A stretch of 64,000 nt of DNA from Sediminibacterium sp. (GTDB lineage Bacteria; Bacteroidota; Bacteroidia; Chitinophagales; Chitinophagaceae), in contig JAEUVE010000018.1 of the NCBI GenBank assembly GCA_016786865.1, forward strand, positions 124,947 through 188,946, in the 5' to 3' direction. Position numbers and translations under genes: made by a program. Positions 471 through 18,226 of the stretch are shown here, one piece after another. Below the pieces are notes generated by a model that saw nothing but the letters and a program-made list of their open reading frames with translations, made no database searches and was not told the DNA's origin. Within the stretch, counting starts at the first letter, position 1; the number at the start of each line of letters is the position of its first letter.

Positions 471-535
471 GCAATTGGCGTGTATGCAATTAATATACAA
501 ATCAGTGAAGCTTACCAGTTTGGTAGGCTTTTTTT
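455..535 (+). promoter_or_regulatory. His attenuator (alternative hairpins and intrinsic terminator)
   Basis: 1:2 hairpin CTTACCC/GGGTAGG (455-471); antiterminator GGTAGGC (466-472) pairing with GCTTACC (510-516); terminator AAGCTTACCA-GTT-TGGTAGGCTT (508-530) with U-tract to 535. Confidence 0.88.
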
Positions 536-547
536 ATTTTTAAGACT

Positions 548-1426: not shown

Positions 1427-1444
1427 CTGTTTAAACTGAAAACG

Positions 1445-2725
1445 ATGATGAAAATCTTTCTGAGTCCGGACCGAAAAGACTGGCCCGGTTTATTGAAAAG
1501 ACCCGGTTTTGATCATGCAGATCTTACCGACAGGGTACGTCAGGTGCTTCAGGCGGTAAAACAGCAAGGGGATACTGCAGTGCGTGAGTATACCGCAGCA
1601 TTCGATGGTGTGCAGTTACAAAACAGCAGGGTAAGTCCGGATGAGATTGCAGCAGCATCCCTGCCCCGTGACCTGAAAGATGCTATTTTGCTGGCGGCCG
1701 CCAATATCCGCCGTTTTCACGAAAAGCAGGTTCCTAAAATGGAGAAGGCGGAAACCCTTCCCGGTGTGAAATGCTGGAGAAAAGCAGTTCCCATTCAAAA
1801 AGTGGGTCTCTATATACCTGGTGGAACAGCGCCTTTGTTTTCCACCATTCTCATGCTGGGAATACCTGCAGCCATTGCCGGTTGCGAGGAAGTGGTGCTT
1901 TGTTCTCCTCCGGATAAAAAAGGTCAGCTGCATCCGGCGATTCTGTTTGCAGCAGACCTGGTAGGCATTAAAAATATTTATAAGATTGGTGGGGTACAGG
2001 CCATTGCTGCCATGGCTTATGGAACGGAAACGGTTCCTGCTGTGTACAAGATATTCGGACCCGGTAACCAGTATGTAACCTGTGCTAAGCAACTGGTACA
2101 GCAGGAGGGTATTGCTATCGATATGCCTGCGGGCCCAAGTGAAGTATGTGTATTGGCAGACGATACGGCCCGTCCGGATTTTGTAGCTGCCGATTTGCTG
2201 AGTCAGGCCGAACATGGTGCAGACAGTCAGGTATTACTGGTAAGTACCAGTAAGGAACTGATACATTCGGTAAATGAATCCCTGGTTAAGCAGTTGAATC
2301 AATTGCCCCGTAAGGAAATGGCCAAAAAGGCATTGGAAAACAGTAAGGCCATTTTTGTTAAAACAAAAAAAGAGGCCATTGATCTGGTAAACGAATATGC
2401 AGCGGAACACCTCATCATTGCCTGTGCCAACGATGAACTCGTGGCATCTTCCATTGTAAATGCAGGTTCGGTATTTCTCGGACATTTTTCTCCGGAAAGT
2501 GTGGGAGACTATGCCAGCGGAACCAATCATACCCTGCCAACCAATGGGCATGCAAGGGCCTACAGTGGTGTGAGCCTCGATAGTTTTCTCAAAAAGATTA
2601 CCTATCAGCGCCTTACCAAAGCAGGATTGCAGCACATTGGCAGGGCAGTCGAAATCATGGCAGAAGCAGAAGGGCTACGTGCACACAAAGAGGCTGTTTC
2701 CATTCGTCTGAGAATAGAATCCTAG
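1445..2725 (+). CDS. hisD: Histidinol dehydrogenase
   Basis: [58 protein letters not shown]. Confidence 0.97.
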
Positions 2726-2789
2726 CAATGGCGCGCCCTGATCTGTCAAATGGCTTTTAACATCAATATTCAATTTATAATTTCTGATC

Positions 2790-3851
2790 ATGTTGTTCGA
2801 TCTTAATCAACTCATTCGGCCGAATATCGCCAGGCTGGTAGCATATTCTTCTGCAAGAGACGAATTCAGCGGTGAGGCAAAAGTATTCCTCGATGCCAAT
2901 GAAAACAGCCTGGGTTCTCCTTTATCAAAATGGTATAACCGATATCCGGACCCGCACCAGAAAGCCTTGAAGGAAAAGATTGCATTTGTAAAGCAATTGC
3001 CACCCGAACATATTTTTTTGGGAAATGGAAGTGATGAGTGCATCGATTTGCTGTACCGTTGTTTCTGTGAGCCGGGCAAAGACAATGCGATCATTTGTCC
3101 GCCTACTTATGGTATGTACGAAGTAAGCGCCAATATCAACGATGTTGCGGTAAAAAAAGTACCCCTGCTGGATGATTTTCAGCTCGATTTGGTTCACCTG
3201 GAAAATGCAGTGGACGCAAATACCAAACTGATCTGGATCTGTTCTCCCAACAATCCGACCGGTAATTCGTTGCACCGGATGGATATTGAAACGGTACTCA
3301 ATAACTTCAAGGGGATTGTGGTGATTGATGAAGCCTATATCAACTTCGCCCGTCAAAAATCCTTTGTTCAGGAACTGGCCGATTATCCCAACTTAGTGGT
3401 ACTGCAAACCTTCAGCAAGGCCTGGGGACTGGCAGGACTGCGCCTGGGCATGGCATTTGCTTCTGCGGCAATCATAGATGTGATGAATAAAGTGAAGCCG
3501 CCGTACAACATCAATCAGGCATCACAGGAACTGGCGTTGAAAGCACTGGAAGAAGTAGGGCAGGTGAACGATATGATCAAATTGCTGGTAGATATGCGTG
3601 AGGCGCTGGCAGAAGTATTCCTTTCCATGCCTACTGTAGAAAAAGTATATCCATCCGATGCCAATTTTATACTGGTGAAGATCCGGGATGCCCGAAAGGT
3701 ATACGAATTCCTCCTTACCAAAGGAATTGTGTTGCGCGACAGAAGCAATGTAAAGCTTTGCGAGGATTGTTTGCGGATTACGGTTGGCTCCGAACAGGAC
3801 AACACATTACTGGTAGATGCCATGCATGAATGGTATGCCCTGAATCCCTAA
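2790..3851 (+). CDS. hisC: Histidinol-phosphate aminotransferase
   Basis: LDANEN, NRYPDP, GNGSDE, SPNNPTG, DEAY, TFSKAWGLAGLRLG (PLP lysine). Confidence 0.96.
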   Translation: MLFDLNQLIRPNIARLVAYSSARDEFSGEAKVFLDANENSLGSPLSKWYNRYPDPHQKALKEKIAFVKQLPPEHIFLGNGSDECIDLLYRCFCEPGKDNAIICPPTYGMYEVSANINDVAVKKVPLLDDFQLDLVHLENAVDANTKLIWICSPNNPTGNSLHRMDIETVLNNFKGIVVIDEAYINFARQKSFVQELADYPNLVVLQTFSKAWGLAGLRLGMAFASAAIIDVMNKVKPPYNINQASQELALKALEEVGQVNDMIKLLVDMREALAEVFLSMPTVEKVYPSDANFILVKIRDARKVYEFLLTKGIVLRDRSNVKLCEDCLRITVGSEQDNTLLVDAMHEWYALNP

Positions 3852-3875
3852 TTTTACGATACCTAAACTTAAAAT

Positions 3876-5117
3876 ATGAAACTCAGTTTTTTATTGTTTT
3901 CGACTCTGGCAGCTTTTGGAGTGGCTTCTGCCCAGTCTCCGGCTGTTTCCATCAAAGTTCCGGCAGGATTTGCGGTTGCCAGTGTGGCAAAAGATTTCGG
4001 AAGGGTCCGCCATATTGCGGTGAACAGTAATGGCGATGTGTACATGAAACTGGAAAAGTTAAACAAAGGGAAAGGTATTTACCGGTTGAGGGATACTAAT
4101 AAAGATGGTATCATGGACGACACCCTGGCTTTTGGAAATTATATCGGCACCGGCATTGCAATAAAGAACGGTTATCTCTATGCGTCTTCCAATACAGACG
4201 TATATCGCTATAAGCTGGATCAGCAACAGAATCCGGTAAATCCGGATCAGCCTGAAACCATTGTTACCGGGCTGGTAGATAAACGACAACACGCTTCTAA
4301 ATCAATAGCGCTGGACAATGCCGGAAATATTTATGTGAACATCGGAGCACCCAGCAATGCCTGCCAGGAGCAGGACCGGAAACAGGGTTCTCCCGGAATG
4401 AATCCATGCCCCATTTTGGAAACAGCCGGAGGAATCTGGCAGTTCAGGGCCGATCAGCTCAATCAGTCTTATAAAGAAGGTATACGATATGCAACTGGTA
4501 TCCGGAATTGTGTAGGATTAGACTGGAACAATGAAGTGAATGAACTTTTTATTACCGTTCACGGAAGGGATATGCTGTACCAGTTCTATCCCGAAATGTA
4601 CGACCAGAAAAAGGGAGCCGAGCTTCCTTCAGAAACGATGTACATGGTGAAGAAAGGAGATGATTGTGGCTGGCCTTATGTGCATTGGGATCATTTTCAA
4701 AATAAGAAAATTCTGAATCCGGAATATGGAGGGGATGGTAAAAAAACAGGTGCGGAAAAAGCCATTGATCCATTGGTAGGATTTCCCGGTCATATGGCGC
4801 CTAATGCCTTGTTGTTCTATACCGGTAATCAGTTTCCGGAAAAATACAAGCATGGAGCATTCATTGCTTTTCACGGTAGCTGGAACAGGGCTCCGGAAAA
4901 CCAGGAAGGATTTTATGTGGTTTTTGTACCCATGAAAAATGGTAAGCCTACTGGTAAATGGGAAGTGTTTGCAGATGGCTTTTCCGGTGTGGATAAAGTG
5001 ACCAATCTAAGTGCGGTGAAACACCGTCCATGCGGACTGGCACAAGGCCCGGATGGTTCCCTGTATGTGTCCGACGACAACAAGGGATATGTTTGGAAAA
5101 TCAATTACAACAAATAA
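3876..5117 (+). CDS. Secreted glucose/sorbosone dehydrogenase-family beta-propeller protein
   Basis: Signal peptide ending ASA|Q; YATGIRN, HGRD, GWPY, GHMAP, AFHGSWNR, RPCGLAQGPDGSLYVSDD motifs of the GSDH/sorbosone dehydrogenase family. Confidence 0.85.
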   Translation: MKLSFLLFSTLAAFGVASAQSPAVSIKVPAGFAVASVAKDFGRVRHIAVNSNGDVYMKLEKLNKGKGIYRLRDTNKDGIMDDTLAFGNYIGTGIAIKNGYLYASSNTDVYRYKLDQQQNPVNPDQPETIVTGLVDKRQHASKSIALDNAGNIYVNIGAPSNACQEQDRKQGSPGMNPCPILETAGGIWQFRADQLNQSYKEGIRYATGIRNCVGLDWNNEVNELFITVHGRDMLYQFYPEMYDQKKGAELPSETMYMVKKGDDCGWPYVHWDHFQNKKILNPEYGGDGKKTGAEKAIDPLVGFPGHMAPNALLFYTGNQFPEKYKHGAFIAFHGSWNRAPENQEGFYVVFVPMKNGKPTGKWEVFADGFSGVDKVTNLSAVKHRPCGLAQGPDGSLYVSDDNKGYVWKINYNK

Positions 5118-5126
5118 ACGGCAGGG

Positions 5127-5546
5127 ATGAAAAAATGGATGGTATTATGCCTGCTGCTGGTATCAGGGATGGGAATGGTGGTTTCTTCCCAAACAGATCG
5201 TTCCGGTTTAAAGGCTTCGATGACAAGGGGTAAACAGGTCTACGACCGGTATTGCCTTACCTGCCATCAGGCAGACGGAGGAGGGGTTCCCCGGATGAAT
5301 CCGCCCATCGCCAATACAGAATACGTATTAGGCAGCAAGCAACGGTTGATTGGTATTGTACTCAACGGGTTGAATGTTCCTCTCGAAATTAACGGGGAGG
5401 AATATGAAAACCCTATGGCTTCACATGCCTTTCTGAAAGACCAGCAGATCGCAGATGTATTAACTTATATTCGAAATTCCTTTGGAAACAAAGCGTCTGC
5501 AGTAACGGTTGCAGAAGTGAAATCCGTGAGGGCAAAAAATAAATGA
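5127..5546 (+). CDS. Secreted monoheme class I cytochrome c
   Basis: Signal peptide, CLTCH heme-binding motif, distal Met in ENPMASH, IADVLTYIRNSFGN; stop overlaps the hisB start (ATGA). Confidence 0.9.
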   Translation: MKKWMVLCLLLVSGMGMVVSSQTDRSGLKASMTRGKQVYDRYCLTCHQADGGGVPRMNPPIANTEYVLGSKQRLIGIVLNGLNVPLEINGEEYENPMASHAFLKDQQIADVLTYIRNSFGNKASAVTVAEVKSVRAKNK

Positions 5547-6676
5547 TGAAACGTATATTATTCATCGACAGAGATGGCGTGGTATTGCAGGAGCCTCCGA
5601 CCGATTTTCAGGTAGACAGTGTTGAAAAAACCAGTTTTGTACCGGGAGCCATTACCCAGTTGCACAGAATTGCTGCAGACTTTGATTTCTATAAAGTAAT
5701 GGTGACCAACCAGGATGGTCTGGGTACCGAAAGTTATCCGGAGGATGATTTTCATCCTTTTCACAATCTGATGTTGCGAACCCTCGAAGGGGAAGGCTTT
5801 GTGTTCGATGAAATGATCATCGACAGAACATTTGCAGCCGATAACCAGCCAACCCGTAAACCTGGTACAGCCCTGCTGAGTCATTTCATTAACAATCCAG
5901 CTTTTGATCTGGCAAATTCCTTTGTAATCGGTGATCGCTGGAGTGATATTCAATTGGCCAAAAACTTAGGTTGCAAGGCCATTTACCTCAAATCCGGACT
6001 GCACGAACTCAGCGAAGAGCAGGTGTTTGAATACGCAGATACCATTGTGCTGGAAACCTCCGACTGGGCAGAGATTTATGCGTTTCTGAAACTGGGTTTG
6101 CGTAAGGTAACACATGAACGCAATACCAATGAAACCAAGATTCACATAGAGTTGAATATAGACGGCACTGGCAAATCCAACATCCATACCGGATTGGGTT
6201 TTTTTGATCATATGCTCGATCAGATTGCCCGCCATGGTAAAATGGATCTCAAGGTGATGACCAAGGGAGACCTTCACATAGATGAACACCATACGATTGA
6301 AGATACAGGTATTGCACTTGGTGAAGCTTTTGCCAAAGCCCTGACAGATAAACGCGGAATGGAGCGCTATGGTTTTGCTTTACCCATGGACGAGGCCGAA
6401 GCAAAAGTGTTGATTGATTTTGGTGGACGAAACTGGATTGTATGGAATGCAGCATTTACAAGAGAACGGGTAGGGGAAATGCCTACCGAAATGTTTTTTC
6501 ATTTCTTCAAATCGTTCAGCGATGGTGCCAGGTGCAATCTGAATATCGAATGCAGGGGAGAGAATGAGCACCATAAAATTGAAGCCATTTTCAAAGCATT
6601 TGCCAAGGCCATCCGCATGGCGGTAAGGCGCGATCCTTTGTCGGATCAGCTGCCTTCCACCAAAGGAGTGTTGTAA
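5543..6676 (+). CDS. hisB: Bifunctional histidinol-phosphatase / imidazoleglycerol-phosphate dehydratase
   Basis: N-terminal HAD domain FIDRDG...TNQDG...RKP...GDR; C-terminal IGPD with FFDHML, DEHHTIED, NEHHKIEAIFK, PSTKGVL. Confidence 0.97.
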   Translation: MMKRILFIDRDGVVLQEPPTDFQVDSVEKTSFVPGAITQLHRIAADFDFYKVMVTNQDGLGTESYPEDDFHPFHNLMLRTLEGEGFVFDEMIIDRTFAADNQPTRKPGTALLSHFINNPAFDLANSFVIGDRWSDIQLAKNLGCKAIYLKSGLHELSEEQVFEYADTIVLETSDWAEIYAFLKLGLRKVTHERNTNETKIHIELNIDGTGKSNIHTGLGFFDHMLDQIARHGKMDLKVMTKGDLHIDEHHTIEDTGIALGEAFAKALTDKRGMERYGFALPMDEAEAKVLIDFGGRNWIVWNAAFTRERVGEMPTEMFFHFFKSFSDGARCNLNIECRGENEHHKIEAIFKAFAKAIRMAVRRDPLSDQLPSTKGVL

Positions 6677-6681
6677 TACTA

Positions 6682-7143
6682 TTACAGGCTTTTAACCCGT
6701 TTCCAGGTATCTGTTTTGCCCAGCAGGGATATGCCCATGAAGCCTCTCACTTCGATGGTGCTTTCATTGATCATGGTAATTTTGCATCCGTAATCGTTGC
6801 CCGACTTTGGATCATACACTTTCCCGTTGTTCCAGAGGTTTTCTTTGGCATATTGTAAGTTGCGCAAATTTACCAATCCCAATAAAGGGCGCGATTTTAG
6901 CTGATCATCGCTGTTTTTTACATCGGTTTTAGGCTTTCCGGTGGCCGGATCATTGGGTTCTTTGAGCCATACCAGCTTTCCGTAATACAGGTCTCCCTGT
7001 TTGTAAATCTGGATTACCCCATTGCCTGCCAATGGCTTCCATAAGCCAACAATGGCATCCGGATTGTTATTGGCCATTGCAAAAGAAGCAGGGCCTGCCA
7101 GCAACATCAAAATCGCCAGGTACCGGTATACTATTTTTCTCAT
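6682..7143 (-). CDS. DUF2147-family secreted protein
   Basis: Signal peptide; IVGLWK, D.KN...RPLLGL, W.NGKVYDPKSG..Y, EVRGF.GISLLGKT.TW pattern. Start taken at ATG 7143 (ORF extends to 7161). Confidence 0.8.
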   Translation of the reverse strand: MRKIVYRYLAILMLLAGPASFAMANNNPDAIVGLWKPLAGNGVIQIYKQGDLYYGKLVWLKEPNDPATGKPKTDVKNSDDQLKSRPLLGLVNLRNLQYAKENLWNNGKVYDPKSGNDYGCKITMINESTIEVRGFMGISLLGKTDTWKRVKSL

Positions 7144-7154
7144 GAGATATTTTT

Positions 7155-7185
7155 TTTGCAATTTCCATCAAAATGGTCATCTTTG
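7155..7185 (+). promoter_or_regulatory. Probable trp operon promoter
   Basis: TTTG (7155-7158), 19-nt spacer, CATCTTTG (7178-7185; one mismatch to TAnnTTTG). Lies the same distance from its leader ATG as the his promoter does. Confidence 0.6.
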
Positions 7186-7193
7186 TAACAGTT

Positions 7194-7250
7194 ATGACAA
7201 TTATTAACAAACATTGGTGGTGGCATACAAACTCTGAACGGGGATTGTAG
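7194..7250 (+). CDS. trpL: Trp operon leader peptide MTIINKHWWWHTNSERGL
   Basis: ATG at 7194, TGG TGG TGG at 7215-7223 flanked by CAT at 7212 and 7224, TAG at 7248-7250; precedes a terminator and trpE. Confidence 0.92.
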   Translation: MTIINKHWWWHTNSERGL

Positions 7251-7309
7251 TGGCGTTGCCAATACTGATTGAATATATTCAAGGCCCCGGATAAAACCGG
7301 GGTTTTTTT
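7239..7309 (+). terminator. Trp attenuator terminator with antiterminator
   Basis: Hairpin AAGGCCCCGG-ATAAAA-CCGGGGTTTT (7281-7306) with U-tract to 7309; CGGGG (7239-7243) can pair with CCCCG (7285-7289) as an antiterminator. Confidence 0.87.
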
Positions 7310-7333
7310 ATTGATCCAATTGAAGCAGAAAAC

Positions 7334-8749
7334 ATGAAAAGAATTCGAATTGAAACAAGCGGTAAAAAAATGCTGGCAGATATTCATACGCCGGTGGGGA
7401 TTTACCTGCGTTTGAGAGACCGTTTCAGGGATACCATCCTGCTGGAGAGCACTGATCACCATGTTTCGGAAAACAGCTATTCATTTATATGTATCAATGC
7501 CATTGGTGGTATTGAAATCAGTTCTGCCGACCGGGTAGAATTTAAACTTCCCGGAAGGGAACCGGAAAGGGTCCAGATCAGCGAGGGCAGTAAAGTTCCG
7601 GAACTTATCTGGGAATATATGGGGCGTATGGAAGCTGCTCCGGTAGAAGACCGGGAACTGCAATTTGCTCAGGGACTTTACGGATACACCAGTTTTGATG
7701 CTGTTCAGTTTTTCGACAAAGTTGCACTTACCGACAAAGCCGAACCGGCCATTCCGCTGATGCGTTACCGGCTTTACCAATACGTGATTGCCATCAATCA
7801 CCATAAGGATATACTCTATCTCTGTGAAAACAGAATTGCCGGTATTGAATCGGATCTGGATGCAGTAGAGTCGCTGATCAGAAGCAAGGATGTGCCCGTG
7901 TTTCCGTTCCGTCTCAAAGGCAATGAGCGCTCCAATATGTCTGATGAAAATTATGTGGAAATGGTTAAGAAAGGCATCAAAAGCTGTATGCGGGGTGATG
8001 TGTTTCAGATTGTACTGAGTCGCCGGTTTGAACACAGTTTTACCGGAGATGAGTTCAATGTATACCGTGCTCTGCGCAGCATCAATCCTTCTCCTTATTT
8101 ATTCTTCTTCGACTATGGCAATTATAAATTATTCGGATCTTCTCCGGAAGCACAAATTATCGTGCAACAGGGAAAAGCAGTGGTGCATCCGATTGCCGGT
8201 ACGTTTCGCAGAACCGGAGATGAAAAAACAGACCAGGAAGCAGCAGCGCGTTTGCTGAAGGATGCGAAGGAAAATGCCGAGCATGTGATGCTGGTAGATT
8301 TAGCCAGAAATGATCTTAGCCGGGTATGTTCCGAAGTGGAAGTGAGCCGGTACAGGCAGGTACAATACTACAGTCATGTAATTCACCTGGTGAGCGAAGT
8401 AACCGGAAAGGTAAAACCAGAACAAAACCCTTTTGAACTGCTGGCCAAAACTTTTCCCGCAGGTACGTTAAGCGGAGCTCCCAAGATCAGGGCAATTGAA
8501 TTGATTGATGCATTGGAGCCTACCAGCAGGGGTTATTATGGTGGTGCAATCGGATTTGCCGGTTTTGACGGCAGCTTTAATCATGCTATTATGATCCGCA
8601 CATTCCTTTCCAGAAACAATACCCTGGTTTGTCAGGCAGGAGCAGGAGTGGTGGCGGCCAGTGTGCCGGAAAGTGAACTGCAGGAGGTTAACAATAAATT
8701 AAATGCATTAAAGACTGCCGCAAAAATGGCGGAAACCATTCATCCATAA
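7334..8749 (+). CDS. trpE: Anthranilate synthase component I
   Basis: LLES, GDVFQIVLS, NPSPY, SSPE, HPIAGT, KENAEHVMLVDLARND, FPAGTLSGAPK, YGGAIG, QAGAGVV. Confidence 0.96.
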   Translation: MKRIRIETSGKKMLADIHTPVGIYLRLRDRFRDTILLESTDHHVSENSYSFICINAIGGIEISSADRVEFKLPGREPERVQISEGSKVPELIWEYMGRMEAAPVEDRELQFAQGLYGYTSFDAVQFFDKVALTDKAEPAIPLMRYRLYQYVIAINHHKDILYLCENRIAGIESDLDAVESLIRSKDVPVFPFRLKGNERSNMSDENYVEMVKKGIKSCMRGDVFQIVLSRRFEHSFTGDEFNVYRALRSINPSPYLFFFDYGNYKLFGSSPEAQIIVQQGKAVVHPIAGTFRRTGDEKTDQEAAARLLKDAKENAEHVMLVDLARNDLSRVCSEVEVSRYRQVQYYSHVIHLVSEVTGKVKPEQNPFELLAKTFPAGTLSGAPKIRAIELIDALEPTSRGYYGGAIGFAGFDGSFNHAIMIRTFLSRNNTLVCQAGAGVVAASVPESELQEVNNKLNALKTAAKMAETIHP

Positions 8750-8761
8750 GCGCAAGAACCA

Positions 8762-9334
8762 ATGAAAATACTTGTATTTGATAATTACGATTCTTTCACC
8801 TACAACCTGGTTCACCTGGTGAACAAAATCACGGGCAACAAAGTGGATGTTTTTCGCAATGATGAATTGCCGCTCGAAAAAGTAGCTGCATACGATAAAA
8901 TCATTTTGTCTCCCGGTCCGGGTATCCCTTCGGAAGCCGGTCTTATGCCGGAACTGATTCAGCAGTATGCTTCTTCCAAAAGCATATTGGGCGTTTGCCT
9001 GGGTCACCAGGCGATTGGTGAATCCTTTGGCGGAACCCTTGTGAATCTCTCTACGGTTTACCACGGTGTAGCCACGCCTGTTTATACCAATGATGCCGCA
9101 AAAAGCCCGCTGTTCAAGGGTTTGCCGGAAGAGTTTACTGTAGGACGCTATCACAGCTGGGTGGTAAGTAGAGATGGTTTTCCTGTAGAACTCGAGATCA
9201 CGGCACTTGATGCCAATGGATACATCATGGGACTGCAGCATAAAAAATATGATGTGCAGGGGGTACAGTTTCATCCTGAAAGTGTCTTGACGCCGGATGG
9301 AGAAACCATGCTGCGCAACTGGCTGAAAAGCTGA
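8762..9334 (+). CDS. trpG: Anthranilate synthase component II (glutamine amidotransferase)
   Basis: DNYDSFTYNL, SPGPG, LGVCLGHQ, RYHS, QFHPES. Confidence 0.96.
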   Translation: MKILVFDNYDSFTYNLVHLVNKITGNKVDVFRNDELPLEKVAAYDKIILSPGPGIPSEAGLMPELIQQYASSKSILGVCLGHQAIGESFGGTLVNLSTVYHGVATPVYTNDAAKSPLFKGLPEEFTVGRYHSWVVSRDGFPVELEITALDANGYIMGLQHKKYDVQGVQFHPESVLTPDGETMLRNWLKS

Positions 9335-9353
9335 TATAACCCTGAGCCTATAC

Positions 9354-9381
9354 GGCTGTGGGTTTTCACAGCCTTGTTTTT
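9354..9381 (+). terminator. Terminator-like hairpin inside the trp operon between trpG and trpD
   Basis: GGCTGTG/CACAGCC perfect 7-bp stem (9354-9373) followed by TTGTTTTT. Confidence 0.55.
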
Positions 9382-9402
9382 AAAACCTTTGATACAGAAA
9401 CC

Positions 9403-10395
9403 ATGAAAAAAATATTACAATACCTGTTCTCTCATAAAACACTTTCCAGAGAAAAAGCCCGGGAGGTCATGCTCAATATTTCTGCCGGTCAATACAACGA
9501 AGCAGAGATCGCTTCCTTTATTACTGTGTACCTGATGCGAAGCATCACCATTGATGAACTGCAGGGATTCTGCGACGGACTGCTCGAGCTTTCTGTTAAA
9601 GTGAAGCTGGAAGGTGGTAAACTTATGGATATCGTAGGTACGGGCGGAGATGGAAAAAACTCTTTTAATATCTCTACTCTGGCCTGTTTTATTGTTGCTG
9701 GCGCAGGACAAAAAGTAGCCAAGCATGGAAACTATGGGGCGTCTACCATCAGCGGTGCATCTAATGTGATGGAGCAATTGGGGTATAAATTCAAAAATGA
9801 TAATGCCGCATTGCAAAAGGAACTGGATGCTGCCAATATTTGTTTTTTGCATGCACCCCTGTTTCACCCCGCTCTCAAAGCTGCGGGACCTGTTCGGAAA
9901 AGTCTGGGGATCAGAACCTTCTTCAACATGATGGGTCCGATGATCAATCCTTCCAAGCCCGATTTTCAATTGGTAGGTGTATACAATCTGGAAATGGCCA
10001 GGATTTACAATTACCTGCTGCAGCAAACAGAAAGGGAATTCACTATCATCCACAGCCTGGATGGGTACGATGAAATTTCACTCACTAGTGATACCAAGGT
10101 AATCACCAATGCCGGCGAACAGATTTTAACTCCGGAACAGTTGGGCAAACGTCCTGTTCGTCCGGAAGACATTCATGGAGGTAATACGGTAGAAGAGGCG
10201 GCCAAAATATTTTTGCGTATTATTAAAGGGGAGGGCACCTGGGCGCAAAACGCCGTGGTGCTCGCAAATGCAGCAATGGCACTCCATTGTACCGGGGGGT
10301 ATTCCAGCTACAATGATGCCTATAAGGCAGCAGTAGAAAGCCTGGAAAGCGGACGTGCCTATGCCGGACTTCAAAAACTGATTGCATTGCAATAA
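9403..10395 (+). CDS. trpD: Anthranilate phosphoribosyltransferase
   Basis: DIVGTGGDGKNSFNIST, KHGNY, SGAS, LHAPLFHPA, RTFFNMMGP, DGYDEIS. Start taken at ATG 9403. Confidence 0.96.
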   Translation: MKKILQYLFSHKTLSREKAREVMLNISAGQYNEAEIASFITVYLMRSITIDELQGFCDGLLELSVKVKLEGGKLMDIVGTGGDGKNSFNISTLACFIVAGAGQKVAKHGNYGASTISGASNVMEQLGYKFKNDNAALQKELDAANICFLHAPLFHPALKAAGPVRKSLGIRTFFNMMGPMINPSKPDFQLVGVYNLEMARIYNYLLQQTEREFTIIHSLDGYDEISLTSDTKVITNAGEQILTPEQLGKRPVRPEDIHGGNTVEEAAKIFLRIIKGEGTWAQNAVVLANAAMALHCTGGYSSYNDAYKAAVESLESGRAYAGLQKLIALQ

Positions 10396-10406
10396 TTTAT
10401 TCGAAC

Positions 10407-11204
10407 ATGAACATACTGGACACCATTATAGCGGAAAAAAAGATTGAAGTAGCGGAGCGTCGGGCAATCCGTTCTGTGGAAGATTTGCAAAAAATGCCTC
10501 TGTTCAACAGGCCAATGCTTTCGCTGAAGCAGTCGCTGCTGGATCCTTCCAAAACAGGGATCATTGCAGAGTACAAACGAAAATCTCCCAGCAAGGGCAT
10601 CATCAATGCCAGCGCTACAGTGGAAGCAGTAACTGCTGCTTATACTGCAAACGGCGCTTCCGGGTTGTCTGTATTAACAGACGATCCATTCTTTGGCGGC
10701 AAGCTCGAAGATCTGGTTGCGGCCAGGGCAAATGAAATACCCATCCTGCGAAAGGATTTTATGATCAGCGAATACCAGCTGGCAGAAGCCAGGGCTTTTG
10801 GTGCAGATGTAATTCTGCTGATTGCCGCCTGTCTGAGCCCGATAGAAGTAAGGCAGTTGGCGGGAAAAGCCAAAGAACTGGAGCTGGAGGTATTACTAGA
10901 AATACACAATGAAGCAGAGCTGGAGCATATTTGCCCGGAAGTAGACCTGGTTGGGATCAACAATCGCAATCTGAAAGATTTTGAAGTAGACATCAATAAA
11001 TCCATGCAGTTGCTAAACATGTTGCCTGCCAATAAACCTGCTGTGGCAGAAAGTGGCATCCATTCTGTAGATACCATTGTAACTTTACAAAAGGCAGGAT
11101 TTAAAGGCTTCCTGATCGGGGAGCGTTTTATGAAAGCTTCTGACCCTTCGATTGCTTTTGCCGATTTTGTAACGCAATTAAAAGCAAAACAGGATGCGGG
11201 CTAA
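10407..11204 (+). CDS. trpC: Indole-3-glycerol-phosphate synthase
   Basis: IIAEYKRKSPSKG, SVLTD, LRKDF, LLEIH, GINNRNL, ESGI, LIGE. Confidence 0.96.
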   Translation: MNILDTIIAEKKIEVAERRAIRSVEDLQKMPLFNRPMLSLKQSLLDPSKTGIIAEYKRKSPSKGIINASATVEAVTAAYTANGASGLSVLTDDPFFGGKLEDLVAARANEIPILRKDFMISEYQLAEARAFGADVILLIAACLSPIEVRQLAGKAKELELEVLLEIHNEAELEHICPEVDLVGINNRNLKDFEVDINKSMQLLNMLPANKPAVAESGIHSVDTIVTLQKAGFKGFLIGERFMKASDPSIAFADFVTQLKAKQDAG

Positions 11205-11835
11205 AGTTTGTGGTTTAAACAGTGTGGAGCAGTTCATGCAGCTGGATGAAATGGGTGTGGAGTTTGGTGGATTTATCTTCTATCCCCAGAGTCCGAGGTA
11301 TGCCCTGAAACACATGCGGCCAGACGAGCTGAAAAGGGCCAAAGGATTGCACATCAATAAAGTAGGTGTGTTTGTAAATGAGCCGGTAGAAAATGTGTTG
11401 CGAATGGTGGATGAACTGGGGCTTTACCTGGTACAGTTGCATGGCGATGAAACACCCCGGTATTGCGAACGAATTGCCGATTATGTTTCTGTGATCAAAG
11501 CCTTCCGTTTGCGTAATGATGATGATGTGTTGTGGAAGGTCAAGGATTATTATGATGTGGCAGATATGTTTTTATTTGATACGGAAGGCGCAGGCTATGG
11601 AGGAACAGGAAAACAGTTCAACTGGGATATCCTGAAAGACCTTTCTATCAATAAACCGTTTTACCTGAGTGGCGGAATTGGGCCCAACGATCTGGCCATG
11701 CTGGAGCAGTTTGCGCAGGATCCCGTAGCCAAAGACCTGTTTGCCATAGATGTGAACAGTAAATTTGAAACGGCACCAGGTATTAAAAATATGGCGTTGC
11801 TGAAAAAATTTATAGAGGAGGTTAAAGCAATCTGA
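11194..11835 (+). CDS. trpF: Phosphoribosylanthranilate isomerase
   Basis: KVCGL, GFIFYPQSPR, VGVFVN, VQLHGDE, FLFDT, GGTG..F.W, LSGGI, DVNSKFE. Confidence 0.95.
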   Translation: MRAKVCGLNSVEQFMQLDEMGVEFGGFIFYPQSPRYALKHMRPDELKRAKGLHINKVGVFVNEPVENVLRMVDELGLYLVQLHGDETPRYCERIADYVSVIKAFRLRNDDDVLWKVKDYYDVADMFLFDTEGAGYGGTGKQFNWDILKDLSINKPFYLSGGIGPNDLAMLEQFAQDPVAKDLFAIDVNSKFETAPGIKNMALLKKFIEEVKAI

Positions 11836-12356
11836 TGAAACAACAAATGAAATGGGTGGTTCTTGCAGGATGGATGCTCCTGATGGGTTTGCAGACCAAG
11901 GCCCAGCAATTATCCGGCGTTTACCTAACAGAAAATGGCAGGGCAAGCTACCTGATTACGGTAGAACAGGTACAACTCCTGCTGAGCGATTCCGGAAAAT
12001 TGGCTGAGATCAGAACTGCATCATCCGGCAATGTTGTGTACAATATTGCCCGTCAGATAGAACAGATCGGCGATGTTAAAATCGGCCTGAATTACCAGGG
12101 TAAAATCAATCGGATAGGCAGTACTGCCATATTGTATGATTTCAACGGAAGAATAGACCGGATCGGGGAACTCAGCTTTCGGTACAATTACAATAATATG
12201 GTGGCTGCTGTTGGCAACCAGGCCATCCGCTACAACCCGGATCAAACCATCGATCAGTTCGACCGGTACCGGATTGTATACAATTACAACAAGCAAGTGC
12301 AGAAGATAGACGACAGTGGAGGACTGATTACCCTGCAATACATTTTTAACAAGTAG
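11835..12356 (+). CDS. Secreted hypothetical protein with six tandem 16-aa repeats
   Basis: Signal peptide ending TKA|QQ; start overlaps the trpF stop (TGATG); repeats span aa 67-162. Confidence 0.75.
12033..12320 (+). repeat. Six 16-aa protein repeats, consensus roughly (I/F)xYNYNG(R/K/Q)IxxIGxxx
   Basis: [16 protein letters not shown] / [16 protein letters not shown] / [16 protein letters not shown] / [16 protein letters not shown] / [16 protein letters not shown] / [16 protein letters not shown]. Confidence 0.8.
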
Positions 12357-12367
12357 AAAATCAAACA

Positions 12368-13552
12368 ATGAATTATCAACAACCCAGTGAACAAGGTTAT
12401 TACGGAAAATTTGGCGGTGCCTATATTCCGGAAATGCTGCATGCGAATGTAGAGGAGTTGAAGGAGCAGTATCTGCAAATTATGCATGAGCCTTCTTTTG
12501 CAGAAGAGTTCCGGCTGCTGCTGAAAGATTATGTTGGTCGTCCTACCCCTTTGTTTTTTGCTGAGCGCCTGAGCAACGAGCTGAATGCGCCTGTTTACCT
12601 GAAACGGGAAGATTTATGTCATACAGGTGCACACAAGATTAATAATACCATTGGCCAGATATTGCTTGCCCGTAAACTGGGTAAAACCCGGATCATTGCA
12701 GAAACCGGTGCCGGGCAGCATGGTGTAGCTACTGCAACCGTTTGTGCCCTGAAAGGTATGGAGTGTATTGTTTACATGGGCGAAAAAGACATTGAACGTC
12801 AGGCTCCGAATGTGGCCCGCATGAAAATGCTTGGCGCAACGGTAGTTCCTGCAACAAGTGGCAGTAAAACATTGAAGGATGCAACCAATGAAGCCATCCG
12901 CGACTGGATCAATCATCCGCAGAATACCCACTATATAATCGGAAGTGTGGTTGGGCCTCATCCTTATCCCGATATGGTAGCCCGTTTCCAGAGTGTGATC
13001 AGTGAGGAAATACGGATTCAGCTGAAAGAAAAAACCGGTAATGAACTGCCTACGCATGTGGTAGCCTGTGTGGGTGGGGGCAGCAATGCAGCCGGTGCAT
13101 TTTATCACTATCTGAACGAGCTGTCGGTACAGCTGGTTGCAGTAGAAGCTGCAGGACATGGGGTAAACAGTGGCATGAGTGCAGCCACAACACAGTTGGG
13201 TAAACCGGGAATCCTTCACGGAAGCAAAAGCCTGGTGATGCAGACTGCTGATGGTCAGGTGGTAGAACCCCACAGTATTTCAGCCGGTCTGGATTATCCT
13301 GGGGTAGGGCCGCTGCATGCCAACTTATTTGATTCGGGAAGAGGTACATTTTTAAGCGCAACCGACGATGAGGCATTGGAAGCAGCATTCCACCTCAGCA
13401 GAACAGAAGGTATTATTCCTGCACTGGAATCGGCGCATGCTTTGTCTGTATTGAGCAGGCTGAACCTTACCCCTTCGGACCGGGTGGTGGTATGTTTGAG
13501 CGGAAGGGGAGATAAGGACCTGGATACCTACATGAAAGCAATGAATAAATAA
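12368..13552 (+). CDS. trpB: Tryptophan synthase beta chain
   Basis: [68 protein letters not shown]. Confidence 0.98.
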
Positions 13553-14344
13553 ATGATCATGAGCAGAATAAAGCAAATTTTCAGTTTAAAAAAACAGCGG
13601 GTACTCAATGTGTATTTCACAGCCGGATACCCTGCTTTAAATGATACCTTACCCATCATGCGTTCGCTGGCTGCCTCCGGTGCAGACCTGATCGAAATCG
13701 GAATGCCTTACAGCGATCCGCTTGCAGATGGCCCTGTAATTCAGGACAGCAGCAGTAAGGCTCTGGTCAATGGAATGACTATTCAAACCCTGTTTGATCA
13801 GCTGAAGGGATTTCGTTCAGAACCATTGCTGGCCAATGCCGGAGTGGTCTTGATGGGCTATATGAACCCTGTGTTGCAGTATGGGTTTGAAGCTTTTTGT
13901 GCAGCAGCTGCTGATGCAGGCGTGGATGGACTCATTCTTCCTGATTTGCCGGAATACGAATTTGAAAATGAATATGGAGCCATCGTAAAAAAATACGGAC
14001 TCGATTTTATCTTTCTGGTTACTCCGGAAACGACAGATACAAGGGTTTATCAGCTCGACCGCCTGAGTTCCGGTTTTTTGTATGCAGTCAGTTCTTCCGC
14101 TACAACCGGAGGAGAGAAGGATTTTGCTGCAGTTGAGTTGTATTTGCAAAAGTTGCAGCAAATGAAGCTGAACAATCCGGTGTTGGTTGGATTTGGTATT
14201 AAAGACCAGGCTACGTTTCATTCTGCCTGTAAATACAGCAACGGTGCTATCATTGGCAGTGCCTATATAAAAGCAATCACCGGGGCCTCCGATATTGCTG
14301 TTGCTACAAAAGCATTTCTGGAACCTATTCTACAAGTTAAATAG
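13553..14344 (+). CDS. trpA: Tryptophan synthase alpha chain
   Basis: YFTAGYP, IEIGMPYSDPLADGPVIQ, LMGYMNP, DGLILPDLP, VGFGI, IIGSA. Confidence 0.97.
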   Translation: MIMSRIKQIFSLKKQRVLNVYFTAGYPALNDTLPIMRSLAASGADLIEIGMPYSDPLADGPVIQDSSSKALVNGMTIQTLFDQLKGFRSEPLLANAGVVLMGYMNPVLQYGFEAFCAAAADAGVDGLILPDLPEYEFENEYGAIVKKYGLDFIFLVTPETTDTRVYQLDRLSSGFLYAVSSSATTGGEKDFAAVELYLQKLQQMKLNNPVLVGFGIKDQATFHSACKYSNGAIIGSAYIKAITGASDIAVATKAFLEPILQVK

Positions 14345-14350
14345 CGCAAA

Positions 14351-14944
14351 GTGAAACTGGTTATTATAAAATACAATGCAGGTAATATACAATCGGTCTT
14401 ATATGCACTGGAAAGAATTGGCGCCACGGCAGTGGTTACAGATGATATCGGGGAAATAGCTGCCGCAGATAAAGTGATCTTTCCGGGTGTAGGAGAAGCC
14501 AGTACTGCTATGGCTTATTTAAAGGAGCGGAACCTGGATCGGGTCATTACCGGTTTACAACAACCTGTGTTGGGGATTTGCCTCGGGATGCAGCTGATGT
14601 GCAGGTTCAGTGAAGAAAACCATACCAGCTGTTTGGGTATTTTTGATGAGGATGTAAAAGCCTTTACTGCATCAGCAGCTTCGACCATTAAAATACCGCA
14701 AATTGGCTGGAACAATATATTTGATCTGAAAACACCCTTGTTTAAAGGGGTGAATGAAAACAGCTATTGCTATTTTGTTCACGGTTATTATGCGGCATTG
14801 GGTGCACATACCATTGCGGCTACCGAATACGGAATTAAATACAGCTCGGCCCTGCACAGGGACAATTTTTACGGAACGCAGTTCCATCCCGAAAAAAGTG
14901 CAGGAGTCGGAGAACAGATTTTGAAAAATTTTATTGAATTGTAA
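14351..14944 (+). CDS. hisH: Imidazole glycerol phosphate synthase, glutaminase subunit
   Basis: GTG start 6 nt after the trpA stop; YNAGN..SV, IFPGVG, LGICLGMQ, PQIGWN, YFVHGY, QFHPEKS. Confidence 0.96.
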   Translation: MKLVIIKYNAGNIQSVLYALERIGATAVVTDDIGEIAAADKVIFPGVGEASTAMAYLKERNLDRVITGLQQPVLGICLGMQLMCRFSEENHTSCLGIFDEDVKAFTASAASTIKIPQIGWNNIFDLKTPLFKGVNENSYCYFVHGYYAALGAHTIAATEYGIKYSSALHRDNFYGTQFHPEKSAGVGEQILKNFIEL

Positions 14945-14953
14945 AAAGGCAGC

Positions 14954-15679
14954 ATGGAAATTATACCGGCAATAGATATCATCGATGGCAAATGTGTAAG
15001 GCTTACCCAGGGCGATTACAACCAAAAGAAAGTGTATAATGAAAACCCGCTGGAAGTAGCCAGGGCTTTTGAAGATGCGGGCATCAAACGGCTGCACCTG
15101 GTAGACCTCGATGGTGCTAAGGCCGGCGCAGTACAAAACTGGAAAGTGCTGGAATCCATTGCAGGGTTCACCAGGCTGACCATTGATTTTGGCGGAGGCA
15201 TTAAGAAAGAATCTGATCTCAAAATTGTTTTCAACTCCGGAGCAGCACTAGCCACGATCGGCAGTCTGGCCGTAAAGGATCCGGCCCTTTTTGCCGACTG
15301 GATCCTGGATTATGGTGGAGAACGTTTCTTTTTAGGAGCCGATGTGAAAGAAGAAAAGATTGCGGTAGGCGGTTGGCTCGAAACCACGGAATTGTCTGTA
15401 TTTGATTTTGTGGACGATTACATCCGCAAAGGGATCAGCCAGGTATTCTGTACCGATATCAGCAAAGACGGGAAGCTGGAAGGCCCTTCGCTGGAATTGT
15501 ACCGGGCACTGATTGGGCGTTTTCCCGACCTGCATTTTGTGGCCAGTGGCGGAGTGAGTAATATGGAAGATGTGCTTTCACTGAAAGCCATTGGATGTAA
15601 AGGAGTCATCATTGGTAAAGCCATTTACGAAGGAAGAATCACCATCGAAGAATTGAGTAAACTGAATCAGGCACTTTAA
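14954..15679 (+). CDS. hisA: ProFAR isomerase
   Basis: [55 protein letters not shown]. Confidence 0.97.
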
Positions 15680-15690
15680 AACAGATTATT

Positions 15691-16449
15691 TTGCTTACAA
15701 AAAGAATTATACCCTGTCTTGATATCAAAGACGGGCGCACGGTTAAAGGCGTCAATTTCGAAAACATCCGCGATGCGGGTGACCCGGTGGAACTGGGCGC
15801 ACTTTATGCAGCCCAGGGGGCCGATGAACTGGTATTCCTCGATATTACTGCTACCAACGAACGGCGTAAAACCCTTAGCGAATTGGTGAATAAGATTGCA
15901 CATCACATCAATATCCCGTTTACGGTTGGTGGTGGTATTGCTTCTGTGGAAGATGTGCGTGTTTTGTTGCAAAATGGCGCCGATAAAATTTCGGTGAATA
16001 CTTCGGCCTTTAAAAATCCGGGACTGATCAAAGAACTGGCCCTTGAGTTCGGCAGTCAGTGTGTAGTGCTGGCCATTGATACCAAAAAGGAAATCGATGG
16101 CAATTGGTATGTTTACCTGAACGGCGGCAGAATAAAAACAGATCGGCTTTGTTTCGACTGGGCAAAGGAAGCGGTGGAACTGGGCGCTGGTGAAATTCTG
16201 CTGACCTCCATGAACAACGATGGCACCAAACAGGGTTTTGCACTGGATATTACCCGTCAGCTATCAATGAACCTGCCTGTTCCGGTGATTGCTTCCGGTG
16301 GCGCTGGTACGATGGAACATTTCGCAGATGTGTTTGAACAGTCCGGTGCAGATGCGGCTCTGGCTGCGAGTATTTTTCACTTTAAGGAGATTGGCATTCC
16401 GGAACTGAAAACATTTCTTGCCCAAAAGGGCATCGCTATACGATTATAA
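15691..16449 (+). CDS. hisF: Imidazole glycerol phosphate synthase, cyclase subunit
   Basis: TTG start; [54 protein letters not shown]. Confidence 0.97.
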
Positions 16450-16477
16450 CCCAAATTTGTATTACAATAGCCTGAAT

Positions 16478-17074
16478 ATGAAAGTTGATTTTAAAAAATA
16501 CAGTGATGGCCTGGTTCCTGCTGTGATCCAGGATTATCAAACCCATAAAGTACTGATGCTGGGATTCATGAATGAGGAGGCGCTGGCCAAAACAACGGAA
16601 ACCGGAAAGGTCACTTTTTACAGCAGAAGCAAGCAGCGGCTTTGGACCAAGGGTGAGGAAAGCGGTCATTTTCTGGAACTGAAATCGATTGCTTCCGACT
16701 GTGATGATGATACCTTACTGATTAAAGTACACCCCATCGGACCAACCTGTCATACCGGCGCCGACACCTGCTGGAGCGAGCCCAATCACAGTGAGGATTT
16801 CCTGCTGTACCTTCAGGATATCATCAATCTGAGGAAGAAAGCTCCTGTAGAGGATTCTTATGTGGCCCGAATGTTCTCGAAAGGACTCAATAAGATTGCG
16901 CAAAAAGTGGGAGAGGAAGCTGTAGAAATGGTGATCGAAGCCAAAGACAATAATACAGAGCTGTTTCTGAACGAATCGGCCGACCTGCTTTTTCATTATT
17001 TGCTTTTACTTAACGCGAAAGGACATACATTAGCAGATGTTCTGGCGGTTCTTCAAAAACGTCATTCCAAATAA
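16478..17074 (+). CDS. hisIE: Bifunctional PR-AMP cyclohydrolase / PR-ATP pyrophosphatase
   Basis: GLVPAVIQD, YSRSKQRLWTKGEESG, DCDDDT, GPTCHTG, KVGEEAVE, ADLLFH. Start taken at ATG 16478. Confidence 0.96.
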   Translation: MKVDFKKYSDGLVPAVIQDYQTHKVLMLGFMNEEALAKTTETGKVTFYSRSKQRLWTKGEESGHFLELKSIASDCDDDTLLIKVHPIGPTCHTGADTCWSEPNHSEDFLLYLQDIINLRKKAPVEDSYVARMFSKGLNKIAQKVGEEAVEMVIEAKDNNTELFLNESADLLFHYLLLLNAKGHTLADVLAVLQKRHSK

Positions 17075-17076
17075 TT

Positions 17077-18156
17077 ATGCATAAGTTACTCATCGCTTTC
17101 TTTCTGCTCACCGGATTTACTGCTGCTGCGCAGGATGGTTTTGAAATACAGGGTATGTTGAAAAATACAAAGCCCAATACATTGGTATTCCTGATGAACG
17201 GAAGCGATGGAAAAACCATTGCCACCGATACCATACGCAATGGTGCTTTCTCTTTTAAGGGAAAACTGGCGGAGCCGGATATCTTCCAGATTGGTTTTAT
17301 TGGGTACAAAGAAGGAATCGATCTGTTCCTCGACAATAACCAGGTAACCATCAACGGAGATTTTAATGAACTCCGGAATGCAACCATCAACGGTTGCCCG
17401 GTACAGGACGACTATCAGCTGTTTAAATCCAGATTTAACCCTATCCGTGAATCATTGAACAGTCTTGCAGCACAGATCAGCCCTGAAAAGAATGTACAGA
17501 AGCGGGATTCCCTGATTCGTTTGTTCGAAACATCCAGAGGTAAGGTACTGGAAGAGGCCAATGCCTTCACCCTCGAAAAGAAAGCATCCCCGGTTAGTCC
17601 GTTTGTACTTTTTGTGATCAGTCCGTTGTTAACTGGTGTTCCTGAACTGGAGCAACGCTACAATGCACTGGAACAAGCGGCAAAAAAAGGAACCTTCTCC
17701 CGTATGCTGGAGAAAACCATCAGTGATGCCAAAGTGAATGGCATCGGAACAGCAGCACAGGAATTCAGCCAGAAAGACACTTCCGGTAAAATGGTTTCGC
17801 TTTCCTCTTTCAGGGGCAAATATGTTCTGGTCGATTTCTGGGCCAGCTGGTGTGGCCCCTGCAGGGCAGAAAATCCAAATGTGGTATCGGCCTATCAGCA
17901 GTATAAAAATAAGAACTTCACCGTATTGGGGGTTTCACTGGATCAGAGCAAATCCAGTTGGATGAATGCCATCCGTAAAGACAAGCTTACCTGGACCCAT
18001 GTAAGTGATCTTCAATACTGGAACAATGCGGTCGCAAGGCTGTACCGGGTGGAAAGTGTTCCGGCTAATTTTTTGATTGATCCCAATGGCATCATCATTG
18101 CCAAAGACCTTCGTGGAGAAGCCTTACACGAAACGCTGAAAAGATTGTTGAAATAG
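17077..18156 (+). CDS. Secreted TlpA/ResA-family disulfide reductase with N-terminal DUF4369-like domain
   Basis: Signal peptide; C-terminal thioredoxin fold LVDFWASWCGPCRAENP, VSLD, W..VSDL..W, P.NFLIDPNG; starts 2 nt after the hisIE stop. Confidence 0.88.
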   Translation: MHKLLIAFFLLTGFTAAAQDGFEIQGMLKNTKPNTLVFLMNGSDGKTIATDTIRNGAFSFKGKLAEPDIFQIGFIGYKEGIDLFLDNNQVTINGDFNELRNATINGCPVQDDYQLFKSRFNPIRESLNSLAAQISPEKNVQKRDSLIRLFETSRGKVLEEANAFTLEKKASPVSPFVLFVISPLLTGVPELEQRYNALEQAAKKGTFSRMLEKTISDAKVNGIGTAAQEFSQKDTSGKMVSLSSFRGKYVLVDFWASWCGPCRAENPNVVSAYQQYKNKNFTVLGVSLDQSKSSWMNAIRKDKLTWTHVSDLQYWNNAVARLYRVESVPANFLIDPNGIIIAKDLRGEALHETLKRLLK

Positions 18157-18180
18157 GCGTTAAACCGTCTATCCTTTTTT
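18153..18180 (+). terminator. Probable terminator of the trp-his-tlpA transcript
   Basis: ATAGGCG/CGTCTAT 7-bp stem (one G-U pair) followed by CC and T6. Confidence 0.5.
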
Positions 18181-18226
18181 GCGTCTCATTACAGTGGATT
18201 TTCTATTTTGTTCCTTCATAGCACGC

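Follow-up and report, generated by a model that had tools for sequence, protein, structure and literature searches.

A probable hybrid trp-his operon in Sediminibacterium, with histidine codons beside the tryptophan codons of its leader

How can a bacterium regulate histidine synthesis when half of the pathway lies behind the switch that controls tryptophan synthesis? The question is raised by a 64,000-nucleotide stretch of a Sediminibacterium sp. genome (family Chitinophagaceae; GenBank assembly GCA_016786865.1, contig JAEUVE010000018.1, positions 124,947 to 188,946 of the forward strand), here called the window, in which the histidine genes hisHAFIE directly follow the last gene of a tryptophan (trp) operon. 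Operon fusions create regulatory conflicts, and here half of one pathway is placed behind another's switch. The best explanation of the locus, and a likely one, is a hybrid trp-his operon behind an attenuator that probably senses both tryptophan and histidine. The gene order itself is already published (PMC8305728); the interesting and new part, apparently unpublished, is that a histidine codon in the trp leader tracks the genes that the operon carries.

Searches against Pfam and NCBIfam bear out the gene order hisL-hisGDC-(dehydrogenase, cytochrome c)-hisB, then a reversed DUF2147 gene, then trpL-trpEGDCF-orf173-trpBA-hisHAFIE-tlpA. An earlier sequence-only reading of the window had named these genes, and each was found where that reading had put it. 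Its statements that the his order is broken exactly between hisB and hisH, with the trp block filling the break, and that 6 nt separate trpA from hisH can likewise be read directly from the gene order and the sequence. The junction consists of the following parts.

13553-14344, plus strand: trpA, with the stop codon TAG at 14342-14344 (Pfam)
14345-14350, plus strand: trpA-hisH spacer of 6 nt, cgcaaa (sequence)
14351-14944, plus strand: hisH, with the start codon GTG at 14351-14353 (NCBIfam TIGR01855)

The hisH gene is single-copy in the 3.1-Mb genome, and the cell therefore depends on the copy behind trpA.

The first step in answering the question is to decide whether RNA polymerase reaches hisHAFIE from the trp leader. 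The trpA-hisH gap has a median of 19 nt and a range of -6 to 121 nt over 60 loci. A sigma-70 promoter scan was dropped because it gave fewer matches than shuffled sequence; for this reason, and because Bacteroidota use -33/-7 boxes, scans for TAnnTTTG were used instead. In 99 of 108 operons the leader ATG is preceded, at a distance of 8-15 nt, by a.A..TTTG box, which often reads TAAATTTG or CATATTTG. The strict TAnnTTTG occurs within 300 nt before hisH at 8 of 60 loci, a rate like that for control internal genes. On the plus strand of the window, neither a terminator-like site nor a Bacteroidota-type -7 box lies between 13491 and 14638, and the terminator scan found no plus-strand terminator-like site from trpB to hisA. 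The scans at the trpA-hisH junction are in agreement with the sequence-only reading, which had seen no clear promoter box or terminator there. That reading had also named a strong promoter within trpB or trpA as the finding that would speak against it; the region was scanned, and the strict box is not enriched before hisH relative to the control genes. Given the very short, conserved gaps, the restriction of a conserved -7 box to the site before trpL, and the lack of any conserved promoter or terminator before hisH, the hisHAFIE genes are most likely transcribed from the trp leader promoter. From the sequence evidence we infer that trp and hisHAFIE are co-transcribed, and a hybrid trp-his operon is quite likely.

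It is improbable that the two gene sets are simply neighbours, with hisHAFIE expressed from a non-consensus promoter of their own inside trpB or trpA and largely independent of the trp leader, as with the internal promoters of the Escherichia coli trp and his operons. Such promoters exist inside enterobacterial trp and his operons; the window's trpB contains a strict TATGTTTG in its 3' end, at 13491, and about a third of loci have a relaxed.A..TTTG motif 120-150 nt upstream of hisH. This relaxed cluster was rejected as an internal promoter: it arises from the codons of a conserved TrpA peptide, (S/T)-F-(D/E), and the window does not have it. Independent expression is also hard to reconcile with the lack of enrichment of the strict box and with gaps of 6-20 nt conserved over more than 70 genera, which fit translational or transcriptional coupling, and it leaves the association between leader histidine codons and linkage, described below, unexplained.

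A further arrangement, in which a single giant operon (hisL-hisGDC..B-trpL-trp-hisHAFIE-tlpA) is transcribed mainly from the his promoter and the trp attenuator acts as an internal checkpoint, is very doubtful. The -7 box directly before trpL in 99 of 108 operons, the hairpin and T-run elements after hisB in several relatives, the reversed gene between hisB and trpL in the window, and the position of hisGDCB far from the trp unit in many genomes all argue against it. In its favour, the window has no terminator between hisB and the converging DUF2147 gene, the hisB-trpL spacer of Sediminibacterium sp. C3 is 40 nt long and without a hairpin, and Del Duca et al. suggested one transcription unit (PMC8305728). 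The cluster is best read as a tandem of two units, each behind an attenuator of its own: hisL-hisGDC..B and trpL-trp-hisHAFIE-tlpA. Read-through from hisB into the trp unit is possible. What the sequence-only reading had proposed, that hisHAFIE lie under the trp promoter and attenuator, is supported by the gaps, the -7 box found only before trpL and the lack of a conserved promoter or terminator before hisH; it has to be amended in that the cluster is read as two tandem units and that the leader contains histidine codons.

The second step concerns the switch itself. The region before trpE contains the following elements.

7178-7185, plus strand: candidate Bacteroidota -7 promoter box CATCTTTG, 8 nt before the trpL ATG
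7194-7250, plus strand: trpL leader peptide MTIINKHWWWHTNSERGL, ending in a stop codon (sequence)
7215-7223, plus strand: the three trpL Trp codons, all TGG (sequence)
7212-7214 and 7224-7226, plus strand: the trpL His codons, giving HWWWH (sequence)
7239-7243, plus strand: CGGGG, inside Arg-Gly codons, a candidate antiterminator strand (folds)
7281-7313, plus strand: Trp attenuator terminator, a 10-bp GC-rich hairpin at 7281-7306 followed by seven T residues (terminator scan)

This is the layout of a classical leader-peptide attenuator, in which tandem Trp codons precede trpE and an intrinsic terminator lies between the leader and trpE. It also has the codon arrangement of multivalent attenuation, with His codons flanking the Trp codons and hisHAFIE downstream. 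Folding gives three structures: a 1:2 helix between the Trp-codon stretch and 7251-7263, a possible 2:3 helix between CGGGG and the CCCCG at 7285-7289, which is the 5' arm of the Trp terminator, and the 3:4 terminator. Homologous leaders with WWW or WW and a terminator were found at 170 loci. In an alignment of 33 related leaders, 7 pairs of the terminator's consensus helix show compensatory changes, and the consensus also includes the 1:2 helix that holds the Trp codons. Rfam at threshold matched neither a Trp nor a His leader family, and the Trp_leader model (RF00513) was unmatched at E up to 1 within positions 1-22000; the element would work like a Trp leader but lies outside the Rfam Trp_leader sequence family.

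The histidine codons are the feature that links the switch to the genes behind it. Leaders were tabulated for 108 linked operons (hisH behind trpA) and 51 unlinked operons. A His codon touches the Trp run in 108/108 linked operons versus 15/51 unlinked ones. It stands right after the last Trp codon in 104 of the 108; the other four have Gln after the Trp run, with His directly before the run (three operons) or one codon later (one operon). His at -1 to the Trp run, as in the window, occurs in 27/108 linked operons and 0/51 unlinked operons. Outside the family, 21 of 22 unlinked operons are without His and carry Asn, Ser, Gln, Leu, Pro, Lys, Arg or Cys instead, whereas all linked operons have it, one (G281) as WWWHH. 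Where the operon is split (genomes G027 and G321), the trpEGDC leader has Asn. A split operon in genus g4 of family f4, with trpEGDC apart from trpFBA-hisH, was considered as an extra test and set aside because no leader precedes trpF. The trpE leader of that genus has Asn and not His, which fits the pattern.

The use of codons points in the same direction. Linked operons use CAT (87) or CAC (15), and CAA and CAG are absent from them unless another His is adjacent, whereas unlinked operons often have CAA or CAG. A 3-bp helix is predicted in which the third base of the His codon is paired to the A of the leader stop. RNA structure was rejected as the cause of the pyrimidine-only third base, since CAC breaks that pair as CAA or CAG would. 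The constraint thus seems to be one on meaning (His and not Gln), present only while his genes lie downstream. The sequence-only reading had spoken of a trp attenuator, and the trp leader and terminator are indeed present; however, the element does not appear to be a purely Trp device, as its His codons track the his genes downstream.

Unlinked lineages are scattered among linked ones on the maximum-likelihood tree of TrpE. His was lost at least 7 times, always in an unlinked background, and it is replaced, mostly by Gln, only in unlinked lineages. Over all branches of the best tree, 16 linked/unlinked pairs can be drawn, of which 8.8 differ in the same direction, 0 in the opposite direction and 7.2 not at all (sign test, p ~0.004).

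In the proposed mechanism, the first unit, hisL-hisGDC-(two foreign genes)-hisB, would be controlled by a classical His-codon attenuator, the elements of which are the following.

420-470, plus strand: hisL leader peptide MKQNLHIHHHHFLPKG, with five His codons, ending in a stop codon (read from the sequence)
507-540, plus strand: His attenuator terminator, a hairpin at 507-531 followed by a T-run (terminator scan)

Rfam gives a weak leader-type, Phe_leader-like match on hisL at 419-537. The second unit would start at its own Bacteroidota-type promoter before trpL and run through trpEGDCF-orf173-trpBA unbroken into hisHAFIE and tlpA; because it does so, the second half of the histidine pathway would depend on RNA polymerase getting past the trp attenuator. 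A ribosome arriving at the leader stop codon (7248) would cover CGGGG at 7239-7243, allowing the terminator at 7281-7313 to form. A ribosome stalled on any of codons 7-11 would leave CGGGG free to pair with CCCCG at 7285-7289, and transcription would continue. CGGGG lies 15 nt downstream of the start of the His codon that follows the Trp run. Since the stall window reads H-W-W-W-H, the proposal is that the operon opens when either amino acid, tryptophan or histidine, runs short. A lack of histidine would release both the trp-his unit and, through the hisL attenuator, hisGDCB; a lack of tryptophan would release the trp-his unit only. Dual sensing would in this way remove the conflict of his genes behind a Trp switch. 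The response of the trp leader to histidine is something that we infer from its codons, and dual sensing of tryptophan and histidine is, on balance, favoured.

Several observations weigh against this explanation. Fourteen of the 15 unlinked operons that keep His belong to members of the family in which trpA is followed by tlpA. Because tlpA directly follows trpA in these 14, hisHAFIE have been taken out and now lie beside hisB; and because these genomes keep the codon without the linkage, part of the association between His and linkage reflects shared ancestry. (Elsewhere in genomes of the same type, His has become Gln, Leu or Tyr, as in G539, G551, G537, G536, G083, G564 and others.) The contrasts rest on a tree of a single gene, and with well-supported branches only they are reduced to 6 pairs (4.4 in the same direction, 0 opposite and 1.6 without difference; p ~0.125); their direction is uniform, and the strict test lacks power. 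In the model of Elf and Ehrenberg (PMC1183508), control by a single regulatory codon is weak and hyperbolic; the leader has one or two such codons. In the alignment, 80% of cells retain the CGGGG:CCCCG pairing, and slide 0 is the best register, with covariation not above that of shuffles. Two short, low-depth Logan contigs span trpA-hisH. The RNA nature of their source runs is a guess; DNA carry-over could account for both contigs, as could a promoter inside trpA. A non-consensus internal promoter may be compatible with the sequence.

Some of these points would suit a hybrid operon with an attenuator that responds to tryptophan only, which is a rather unlikely account. Here hisHAFIE would be expressed by basal read-through or by read-through out of hisB, the leader His would be inherited baggage or RNA or peptide context, and histidine flux would be set by feedback inhibition of HisG together with the hisL attenuator on hisGDCB. 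The 14 family genomes that keep the codon with no his genes behind trpA, the non-significant strict phylogenetic test, the theoretical weakness of one His codon as a sensor (PMC1183508), and the location of the His codon nucleotides within a predicted helix are in line with it. It does not account as readily for a His beside the Trp run that is never lost in 108 linked operons and lost at least 7 separate times in unlinked ones, for the His at -1 in 25% of linked versus 0% of unlinked operons, for the tolerance of CAC though it breaks the same predicted pair as CAA, or for the His codons in linked operons of three other families, one of them with WWWHH. With a hybrid operon that senses both amino acids, the history of the leader could be read as follows: in Chitinophagaceae and neighbouring families it would be a two-amino-acid sensor whose His codons were fixed after trp joined hisHAFIE and decayed, mostly to Gln, once hisHAFIE left. 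This history is held to be slightly better than an even bet.

The third step is to ask how old and how widespread the linkage is. A concatenated TrpE+TrpA+HisH+HisB query, which scored two candidates per genome, was too narrow to establish adjacency across the phylum and served as a source of trpE coordinates. trpA and hisH are neighbours in 24/24 genomes from the genus of the window, in some 45 named loci from Chitinophagaceae (Chitinophaga, Sediminibacterium sp. C3, Flavihumibacter, Puia and Agriterribacter among them), and in 70 of the 120 family genomes that have trpE, nearly each of a different genus. The arrangement is not due to chance, being present in all 24 same-genus genomes and more than 100 further genomes. 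The linkage of trp with hisHAFIE exists in several forms, and variants occur in three other families of the class (f4, f26 and f29). In f4, genome G190 has trpA, 155 nt and hisH. In f26, genomes G285 (locus L092) and G253 (L098) have trpA, DAHP synthase and hisHAFIE, with a Phe hydroxylase as well in one of the two. In f29, genome G281 (L095) has trpA, purU (formyltetrahydrofolate deformylase) and hisHAFIE. The hisGDCB genes lie far from the trp unit in many genomes. The sequence-only reading had thought that the rearrangement looks old; the gene-neighbourhood comparison supports this, since the arrangement recurs in over 70 genera of the Chitinophagaceae and variants of it occur in three further families.

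In two Chitinophagaceae, Thermoflavifilum thermophilum and Filimonas lacunae, Del Duca et al. found the his operon to be interrupted by trp genes, and they took the short gaps to suggest a single transcription unit (Del Duca et al. 2021, Microorganisms 9:1439, PMC8305728). Their report is silent on leaders, promoters, distribution and loss events (PMC8305728). The window belongs to the same type of cluster, coming from the same family and having the order hisGDC(N)B-trp-hisHAFIE on one strand with short gaps, but it differs in the reversed DUF2147 gene between hisB and trpL. Whereas two genomes were described there, the trait is shown here to be family-wide, with its own promoter box and leader before trpE and a His codon that tracks linkage.

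Several further features of the trp-his region were seen among relatives. The trpF-trpB junction (11835-12356 in the window; L027, L133) is a hot spot for insertions: it holds a 173-codon secreted repeat protein in the window's genome and in Sediminibacterium sp. C3 and 0.5-2.3 kb of other DNA in many relatives. In one genome (G325, contig C12, ~409-447 kb; L223, L224, L114), about 38 kb splits trpF from trpB, while trpBA-hisHAF stay together and the WWWH leader is kept. Several relatives have two tandem trpF-like matches between trpC and trpB (L004, L005, L115, L122, L124, L126, L137). A TlpA/ResA-like gene with DUF4369 follows hisIE almost everywhere and stands directly behind trpA where hisHAFIE moved back beside hisB (L121-L146); because it stays behind trpA once hisHAFIE are gone, tlpA seems to belong with the trp unit and not with the his genes. 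In records of metagenome-assembled genomes labelled Paludibacter or Paludibacteraceae (L063, L065, L068, L071-L076, L079), hisH is ~60-67% identical to that of the window, and the flanking 10 kb on each side yielded no further his or trp gene. TrpE of family f21 (L088-L090) branches inside Chitinophagaceae beside one member (L151), and the f21 leaders, WWWLSNSSSGL, resemble those of the family; the branching may mean that the trp operon passed from one family to another. Among the nearly complete Chitinophagaceae genomes sampled, about a quarter lack trpE as well as hisH and are probably tryptophan and histidine auxotrophs.

The remaining genes of the two units, with the DUF2147 gene between them, are the following.

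548-1426, plus strand: hisG (Pfam)
1445-2725, plus strand: hisD (Pfam)
2790-3851, plus strand: hisC (Pfam)
3876-5117, plus strand: GSDH-like dehydrogenase (Pfam)
5127-5546, plus strand: cytochrome c (Pfam)
5543-6676, plus strand: bifunctional hisB (Pfam; NCBIfam NF003937)
548-6676, plus strand: the first unit, hisG-hisD-hisC-GSDH-like-cytochrome c-hisB, with gaps of 18, 64, 24, 9 and -4 nt
6682-7143/7161, minus strand: DUF2147 gene (Pfam PF09917)
7334-8749, plus strand: trpE (Pfam)
8762-9334, plus strand: trpG (Pfam)
9358-10395, plus strand: trpD (Pfam)
10407-11204, plus strand: trpC (Pfam)
11194-11835, plus strand: trpF (Pfam)
11835-12356, plus strand: orf173, secreted repeat protein of 173 codons (no family match)
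12368-13552, plus strand: trpB (Pfam)
7334-14344, plus strand: the trpE-trpA block, with gaps of 12, 23, 11, -11, -1, 11 and 0 nt
14954-15679, plus strand: hisA (NCBIfam TIGR00007)
15691-16449, plus strand: hisF (NCBIfam TIGR00735)
16478 (or 16418)-17074, plus strand: hisIE (NCBIfam NF002747)
17077-18156, plus strand: tlpA, TlpA/ResA-like thiol-disulfide oxidoreductase with a DUF4369 N-terminal domain (Pfam, NCBIfam)
18153-18182, plus strand: terminator-like hairpin and T-run at the tlpA stop (terminator scan)

HisH, HisA, HisF, HisIE and HisB exceed the curated cut-offs of the NCBIfam equivalog models. The listed hisIE open reading frame begins with TTG at 16418, overlapping hisF by 32 nt; the ATG at 16478, from which the HisIE model fits beginning with the second residue, is the likelier start. 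With that start, the gaps in the stretch from trpE to tlpA range from -11 to 28 nt. tlpA begins 2 nt past hisIE and is probably the last gene of the trp-his unit, and the hairpin and T-run from 18153 are likely its end.

In the first unit, the dehydrogenase and cytochrome c pair (3876-5546) lies between hisC and hisB, and the cytochrome c stop overlaps the hisB start. Since the pair is kept at this place in many genera (L006, L007, L009, L012, L019, L025, L027, L028, L033, L038, L039, L067, L113), it is an old insertion into the his unit and not a recent accident. By sequence and terminator scan, the DUF2147 gene converges on hisB with a 5-nt gap and no terminator between them, so antisense read-through from it is possible. 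The closest named relative, Sediminibacterium sp. C3, lacks the gene at this spot, its hisB-trpL spacer being 40 nt.

If the leader His codon relieves termination, it would be a simple one-codon fix for a regulatory conflict, and the family would hold a natural record of attenuator specificity set by operon cargo. If the codon has no effect, the locus shows an ordinary and already published gene order. Dozens of lineages with the linkage and dozens that lost it make up a built-in natural experiment. A remark in the literature on two genomes is extended to a family-wide, ancient trait, and the promoter-leader-terminator module, which is not in Rfam, can be recognised by annotators.

Multivalent ribosome-mediated attenuation is known from E. 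coli, in which thrL has Thr and Ile codons, the ilvGMEDA leader Ile, Leu and Val codons, and the ilvBN leader Val and Leu codons. As would be the case here, one leader peptide contains regulatory codons for more than one amino acid, and scarcity of any of them leads to read-through. The E. coli leaders serve one branched pathway and have many codons for each amino acid, whereas the trp-his leader would join two unrelated pathways brought together by rearrangement, has one or two codons for the second amino acid, and is known from sequence.

The trpL leader of E. coli has tandem Trp codons that are followed within a few codons by a stop, as in the window, and its 1:2, 2:3 and 3:4 helices correspond to those proposed here. 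The codon right after its Trp run lies ~14 nt before the antiterminator strand, much as in the window; the two leaders have no sequence relation, Rfam Trp_leader being unmatched at E up to 1. Zurawski and coworkers reportedly found in 1978 that the Arg codon after the two Trp codons of E. coli trpL also relieves termination on arginine starvation. That Arg codon is not known to have an adaptive role; of the two codons, only the His codon of the window matches the cargo of its operon.

The aromatic supraoperon of Bacillus subtilis, aroFBH-trpEDCFBA-hisC-tyrA-aroE, resembles the cluster in that a trp operon with its own promoter and attenuator lies among other amino acid genes, receives upstream read-through and has a his-named gene after trpA. 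It differs in being regulated by the TRAP protein and not by a leader peptide, and its downstream gene encodes an aminotransferase shared with aromatic synthesis, in contrast to the half of the histidine pathway that follows trpA in Sediminibacterium.

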